This document shows positions 50,407 through 51,442 of a stretch of 64,000 nucleotides of DNA, one piece after another (position 1 is the stretch's first letter; the number at the start of each line of letters is the position of its first letter). This stretch comes from Escherichia coli O157:H7 (GTDB lineage: Bacteria; Pseudomonadota; Gammaproteobacteria; Enterobacterales; Enterobacteriaceae): assembly GCF_013167455.1 (NCBI RefSeq), contig NZ_CP038328.1; one strand, written 5' to 3'. Below the pieces are notes generated by a model. It was not told the DNA's origin. It did no database searches and saw only the letters and a list, made by a program, of their open reading frames with translations. The position numbers were made by a program, and so were the translations under genes.

Positions 50407-51442
50407 GATGAGTAACGCGATTACGATGGGGATATTTTGGCATTTGATCGGCGCGGCCAGTGCAGCCTGTTTTTACGCTCCGTTCAAAAAAGTAAAAAAA
50501 TGGTCATGGGAAACCATGTGGTCAGTCGGTGGGATTGTTTCGTGGATTATTCTGCCGTAGGCCATCAGCGCCCTGTTACTACCGAATTTCTGGGCGTATT
50601 ACAGCTCGTTTAGTCTCTCTACGCTGCTGCCTGTTTTTCTGTTCGGCGCTATGTGGGGGATCGGTAATATCAACTACGGCCTGACCATGCGTTATCTCGG
50701 CATGTCGATGGGAATTGGCATCGCCATTGGCATTACGTTGATTGTCGGTACGCTGATGACGCCAATTATCAACGGCAATTTCGATGTGTTGATTAACACC
50801 GAAGGCGGACGCATGACGTTGCTCGGCGTTCTGGTGGCGCTGATTGGCGTAGGGATTGTAACTCGAGCCGGGCAGTTGAAAGAGCGCAAGATGGGCATTA
50901 AAGCCGAAGAGTTCAATCTGAAAAAAGGACTGGTGCTGGCGGTGATGTGCGGCATTTTCTCTGCCGGGATGTCCTTTGCGATGAACGCCGCAAAACCGAT
51001 GCATGAAGCCGCTGCCGCACTAGGCGTCGATCCACTGTATGTCGCTCTGCCAAGCTATGTTGTCATCATGGGCGGCGGCGCGATCATCAACCTCGGTTTC
51101 TGTTTTATTCGTCTGGCAAAAGTGAAGGATTTATCGCTAAAAGCCGACTTCTCGCTGGCAAAACCGCTGATCATTCACAATGTGTTACTCTCAGCACTGG
51201 GCGGGTTGATGTGGTATCTGCAATTCTTTTTCTATGCCTGGGGCCACGCCCGCATTCCGGCGCAGTATGACTACATCAGTTGGATGCTGCATATGAGTTT
51301 CTATGTATTGTGCGGCGGTATCGTCGGGCTGGTGCTGAAAGAGTGGAACAATGCAGGACGCCGTCCGGTAACGGTGTTGAGCCTCGGTTGTGTGGTGATT
51401 ATTGTTGCCGCCAACATCGTTGGCATGGGCATGGCGAATTAA
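50407..51442 (+). pseudogene. rhaT: L-rhamnose:H+ symporter gene rhaT, apparently disrupted (+1 frameshift near 50519-50521 and in-frame TAG at 50558-50560)
   Basis: ATG at 50407 encodes [38 protein letters not shown]; the continuation [12 protein letters not shown](stop)[16 protein letters not shown]... is in the next frame after an extra g in atgtgggtc, and contains TAG where Trp is expected. The longest intact ORF starts at an internal Met (50651). Confidence 0.6.

Follow-up and report, generated by a model that had tools for sequence, protein, structure and literature searches.

An amber codon in rhaT of Escherichia coli O157:H7, apparently fixed across the O55:H7/O157:H7 clone

Does rhaT, the gene for the L-rhamnose/H+ symporter, still encode a transporter in Escherichia coli O157:H7 and, if it does not, how might strains of this lineage come to score positive for rhamnose in some tests and negative in others? 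The question is raised by the window analyzed here, that is, the whole 64-kb stretch of E. coli O157:H7 DNA under study, which is collinear with the reverse complement of Sakai positions 4,887,020-4,951,019 and differs from it by 6 SNPs, none of them within rhaT. One of the six, at position 743, falls in frwC (PTS IIC component; 402-1481, minus strand), which is intact in the window, with GAA at codon 247, and is annotated as a pseudogene in Sakai, where codon 247 is TAA.

That rhaT is a pseudogene in O157:H7 and O55:H7 is already known, and the reference genomes annotate it. In RefSeq, the Sakai gene is entered as pseudogene ECs_5767, “L-rhamnose:proton symporter”, and PGAP flags it as pseudo, with “internal stop”, in O157:H7 PV15-279, O55:H7 CB9615, O55:H7 DEC5A, and 2013C-4465. 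A literature search on rhaT as an E. coli pseudogene found nothing relevant. What is added here is that the lesion is a nonsense substitution and not a frameshift, that it is present in O55:H7, that it is apparently fixed, and that there is a structural case against a truncated product.

One nonsense substitution in rhaT

Positions 49300-51000 were read base by base along with their ORFs. Direct comparison gives rhaT the same length, 1035 nt, in the window, K-12, and O55:H7 CB9615, with no indels, which amounts to 345 codons counting the terminal TAA; in the window one of these is an internal amber codon. Translated in a single frame from 50408, the gene gives the N-terminus of RhaT (beginning MSNAIT), then the TAG in the context WIILP-stop-AISALL, and then the remainder of the protein through to its close at GMGMAN and the terminal stop, the amber being the single internal stop. 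Because one frame yields both the N-terminus and the remainder, with no indel, the lesion comes down to one nonsense substitution: G152A, at 50559, converts the TGG of codon 51 into TAG and is the sole lesion in the gene. An in-frame TAG where Trp is expected had been noticed in a preliminary description of this DNA, and K-12 and seven other E. coli do have the sense codon TGG at that position; the alignment to K-12 rhaT suggested there has K-12 codon 51 as TGG, so K-12 is without the stop.

The same description had also proposed a 1-nt insertion, and with it a frameshift, at “atgtgggtc” (about 50519-50521). The bases at 50517-50525 are instead atgtggtca, with no GGG run, and K-12 is identical there; a frameshift is ruled out by this comparison together with the one-frame translation and the equal 1035-nt length. 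The pseudogene call itself stands, in agreement with RefSeq, with one half of its mechanism (nonsense) right and the other (frameshift) wrong. A frameshift also appears in the literature: Barth et al. (2020; PMC7354573) found rhaT truncated in all their O157 strains and called the lesion a frameshift, a description that the sequence does not support.

Compared with K-12 b3907, the window gene has 16 nt differences (98.5% nucleotide identity) and five amino-acid differences, R73L, S130N, S253P, T263A, and I340M. The first four are peculiarities of K-12 rather than of the O157 allele, and I340M is common to CE10. In the K-12 reference RhaT (9492-10526 of the compared locus), R73, S130, S253, and T263 are private with respect to six other intact alleles. 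It is K-12, and not O157, that is the rhaT outlier, and the O157 allele minus its stop is a normal E. coli rhaT.

Table 1. Coordinates of rhaT, its remnants, and the rest of the rhamnose regulon in the window
Feature	Position	Strand	Basis or remarks
sodA-rhaT intergenic region with rhaT promoter	50124..50407	+	284/284 nt identical to K-12
rhaT pseudogene (L-rhamnose/H+ symporter)	50408..51442	+	One-frame translation, K-12 comparison, Pfam PF06379, RefSeq flag
Residual N-terminal ORF, 50 codons	50408..50560	+	Hydrophobic segment 1 and half of segment 2; ORF listing
Amber codon TAG, replaces Trp51 (TGG)	50558-50560	+	Direct reading, K-12 comparison
Downstream in-frame ORF from Met82, 263 aa	50651..51442	+	ORF listing, Pfam
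rhaR, intact, 282 aa, GTG start	51439..52287	-	1 aa from K-12; identical to O55:H7 CB9615
rhaS, intact, 278 aa	52361..53197	-	No internal stop; 1 aa from K-12
rhaB, intact, 489 aa	53485..54954	+	K-12 comparison
rhaA, intact, 419 aa	54951..56210	+	K-12 comparison
rhaD, intact, 274 aa	56385..57209	+	K-12 comparison
rhaM, intact, 104 aa	57219..57533	+	K-12 comparison

Spread and age of the TAG allele

Of 5,426 complete E. coli genomes, 308 contain an exact match to a 61-mer centered on the TAG, and nearly all of the remaining genomes match it with one or two mismatches. A sequencing or assembly error, behind which the gene would really be intact or really frameshifted, would have to be reconciled with these counts. 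Because the same 61-mer recurs in 308 independent complete genomes, produced on different platforms and including Sakai, EDL933, EC4115, and O55:H7, the TAG is a lineage mutation and not a sequencing error; the gene is as long as that of K-12, and support for an error was sought and none was found. Error is excluded as the source of the TAG, and the caveat to that effect in the preliminary description has been dropped. Over a 1201-bp region, rhaT and its surroundings match dozens of E. coli O157:H7 chromosomes at 100% identity, and a search for a revertant, using the 1201-bp query with TAG changed to TGG, gave no 100% match among the matches listed, the best being O157:H7 at 99.9%.

A second 61-mer, covering a 3'-end haplotype of four linked variants (999T, 1005C, 1014T, and 1020G), is likewise exact in 308 genomes, and the two sets of 308 are taken to be the same genomes from their equal counts and from the samples. 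Among 33 sampled carriers of the 3' haplotype, those that are named are all O157:H7 or O55:H7. Positions 382 and 522 of rhaT were also considered as lineage markers and were rejected, their 61-mers occurring in 435 and 342 genomes, including CP53 and 14EC033, which carry TGG at codon 51.

Read directly, codon 51 is TAG in O55:H7 CB9615, O55:H7 DEC5A, and 2013C-4465, and TGG in K-12, O145 RM9873-C1, O104:H4 2009EL-2050, O7:K1 CE10, 2015C-3107, 14EC033, and CP53, such that the TAG allele recurs in numerous independent assemblies from a single clade and, as judged by the sampled named carriers, is absent outside it. Since TAG is shared by O55:H7 and O157:H7, with TGG elsewhere, the mutation appears to date from a single event that preceded the O55:H7/O157:H7 split and followed the divergence from the other lineages examined. 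Among O157:H7 and O55:H7 genomes, rhaT varies by 0-1 nt and has no second lesion; relative to the window, Sakai has 0 differences, DEC5A is identical, and CB9615 differs by 1 nt. The amber codon is apparently fixed across the O55:H7/O157:H7 clone as sampled.

Probable consequences for RhaT and for rhamnose use

Ten hydrophobic segments are visible by hydropathy in the conceptual RhaT translation, the first four at residues ~4-22, 38-61, 67-88, and 94-123, a pattern that fits the published ten-helix topology as it is cited in PMC7354573. No RhaT structure was matched in a sequence search of the PDB. The stop at codon 51 interrupts the second segment midway. No in-frame ATG, GTG, or TTG is present at codons 52-81, and the first possible restart after the stop is Met82 (50651), which lies within the third segment; the 20 nt upstream of it, ctgtttttctgttcggcgct, hold no Shine-Dalgarno-like motif. 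Both remnants are recognized by the Pfam RhaT profile (PF06379), the N-terminal fragment over profile positions 1-50 (E = 1.3e-28) and the C-terminal fragment over 82-343 (E = 8.6e-164), as compared with 1-343 for K-12 RhaT. The family match therefore extends over the full length in two fragments, whereas an uninterrupted frame of ~344 codons with all ten hydrophobic segments is lacking, being broken by the amber codon at 51. On these grounds the window gene belongs to the RhaT family by descent, but probably not as a functional member. Since the stop falls where it does and is followed by no plausible restart, we infer that no working rhamnose/H+ symporter is made from it.

The rhamnose phenotype reported for O157 depends upon the test employed. 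Non-fermentation of rhamnose on agar by O157 is said to have been the basis of CR-SMAC medium, attributed to Chapman et al. in 1991; the CR-SMAC papers that we found only use the medium. O157 is reported not to ferment rhamnose on agar in work cited in PMC2811833, whereas O157:H7 isolates are rhamnose-positive in API 20E (PMC1852560) and the very strains in which Barth et al. described truncated rhaT are rhamnose-positive in phenotype microarrays (Omnilog; PMC7354573). In EDL933, moreover, a toxin placed under a rhamnose promoter is induced by 0.2-2% rhamnose (bioRxiv 10.1101/624551). The preliminary description had held that the strain would keep the rhamnose pathway and lack its dedicated symporter; the first part is upheld, and the second is better put more softly, as O157 carriers of the allele are positive in Omnilog and API 20E and respond to 0.2-2% rhamnose.

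Faced with rhamnose-positive strains, Barth et al. assumed that the truncated RhaT works, as no other E. coli rhamnose transporter had been described (PMC7354573). Such a protein would be the 263-aa product of a start at Met82, the codons for which are still open and still match the Pfam profile over 82-343, and rhamnose use in Omnilog would be in keeping with its being made and transporting the sugar. Its start would, however, lie inside a hydrophobic segment and lack a Shine-Dalgarno-like sequence, and the frameshift described by its proposers is absent from the sequence. The drug/metabolite transporter superfamily is built as two five-helix halves, and a protein lacking about 2.5 of ten helices should have both its topology and its substrate path disrupted. 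We regard a functional Met82 product as very improbable.

The remainder of the regulon bears on what happens to rhamnose within the cell. The order sodA - rhaT - rhaR/rhaS - rhaBAD - rhaM is that of K-12 and of O55:H7, with rhaT in the orthologous position, and the sodA-rhaT spacer is where the RhaS/CRP-dependent rhaT promoter lies (Via et al., 1996, cited in PMC10132054). The earlier statement that rhaBAD, rhaSR, and rhaM are full length proves accurate: all have K-12 lengths and K-12 start codons, with no internal stops, and each of the six products is one to five amino acids from its K-12 counterpart.

Several further observations concern the rha region. The convergent rhaT and rhaR genes overlap at their 3' ends by 4 nt (51439-51442), and it is conceivable that the premature stop of rhaT alters transcription running into the 3' end of rhaR. 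The rhaA-rhaD spacer (56211-56384) consists of tandem ~92-bp REP/BIME-like units of variable copy number. It is 174 bp long in the window and in O157:H7, as against 450 bp in K-12 and 542 bp in O55:H7 CB9615, so that O157:H7 falls short of its O55:H7 relative by about four units. Between rhaM and frvA, both O157:H7 and O55:H7 have a gene for a RafY-type glycoporin of 464 aa (57574-58968, minus strand; Pfam PF16966, E = 4.5e-152) where K-12 has only a spacer of ~300 bp. A second regulon lesion is present in O157:H7 PV15-279, in which Ser142 of rhaS (11062-11898 of the compared locus) is changed from TCG to TAG; the window rhaS is intact.

Taken together, these data make it probable, as far as sequence comparison can indicate, that O157:H7 carries a lineage-fixed amber null allele of rhaT within an intact regulon, and that rhamnose enters by slow routes independent of RhaT. 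A G-to-A transition has converted Trp51 (TGG) to amber (TAG) midway through the second transmembrane segment and has been inherited by every sampled member of the O55:H7/O157:H7 clone. Translation from the normal start ends after 50 residues, and a restart at Met82, which has no ribosome-binding site, would give a product devoid of the first two helices and most of the third, with high-affinity rhamnose/H+ symport presumably lost as the outcome. Because the promoter, RhaS/RhaR, and RhaBADM are intact, the cell should remain able to sense and catabolize rhamnose that has entered it. Entry of the sugar would be by slow, low-affinity, RhaT-independent routes and its use correspondingly slow and dependent on high concentration, which would account for positive results of O157 in tests that supply much rhamnose or run long, alongside the reported lack of fermentation on rhamnose agar. 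RhaT-independent entry has a precedent: a rhamnose promoter still answers to rhamnose in dose-dependent fashion in K-12 deficient in both RhaT transport and rhamnose catabolism (PMC6664373). A deoxyhexose preprint and a tunable-promoter review were found to hold no rhaT-mutant data. The tie between the agar phenotype and the rhaT amber codon is that of a candidate cause.

One point that can be held against a null allele is that the reading frame is otherwise undamaged, a state compatible either with residual function or with the youth of the clone. Residual function could be had if the amber were leaky, with a near-cognate tRNA decoding UAG at a low level to yield a little full-length RhaT upon induction of the promoter, and in this way accounting for rhamnose use. 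The promoter identical to that of K-12, the perfectly kept frame downstream of the stop, and the rhamnose-positive results of O157 strains in several tests would all accord with this. When no suppressor tRNA is present, however, E. coli usually reads through UAG at a very low level, and preservation of the frame carries little weight in so young a clone. Nor is read-through needed, given the entry of rhamnose into K-12 without rhaT (PMC6664373), and we consider this explanation unlikely. Less probable again is an adaptive version of the idea, in which the amber allele, with a trickle of RhaT supplied by read-through, would not be neutral decay but would serve to tune down rhamnose uptake, in parallel with the independent rhaS and rhaR knock-outs of O26 and O165/O172, or would be the basis of the non-fermenting trait on agar that CR-SMAC exploits.

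Comparison with known systems

Within E. coli the closest functional comparison for the amber-bearing gene is K-12 rhaT (b3907; L-rhamnose/lyxose:H+ symporter, PF06379), which occupies the same position between sodA and rhaR, has the same 1035 nt, and is preceded by an identical 284 bp, but has TGG at codon 51 in place of the TAG of the window. Sakai ECs_5767 and the rhaT of O55:H7 CB9615 and DEC5A have the same TAG at codon 51, and nothing relevant distinguishes them from the window gene. The amber codon would be a simple genetic candidate for the test-dependent rhamnose result in O157 (negative on agar, positive in API and Omnilog). Its practical value is small and specialists would not be surprised by it, the feature being real but ordinary.

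With this allele, the O157/O55 group joins other EHEC lineages that are each damaged in a different gene of the rhamnose regulon. A frameshift in rhaS in O26:H11 and one in rhaR in O165:H25/O172:H25 (PMC10132054; PMC7354573) are likewise losses of a single gene in an otherwise complete regulon, fixed in the respective EHEC lineage and associated with rhamnose fermentation that is weak, delayed, or absent. The difference is one of reach: the O26 rhaS and O165/O172 rhaR lesions affect activators and silence the whole regulon, whereas the O157 rhaT lesion hits only the transporter, and the phenotype reported for it is milder and test-dependent.
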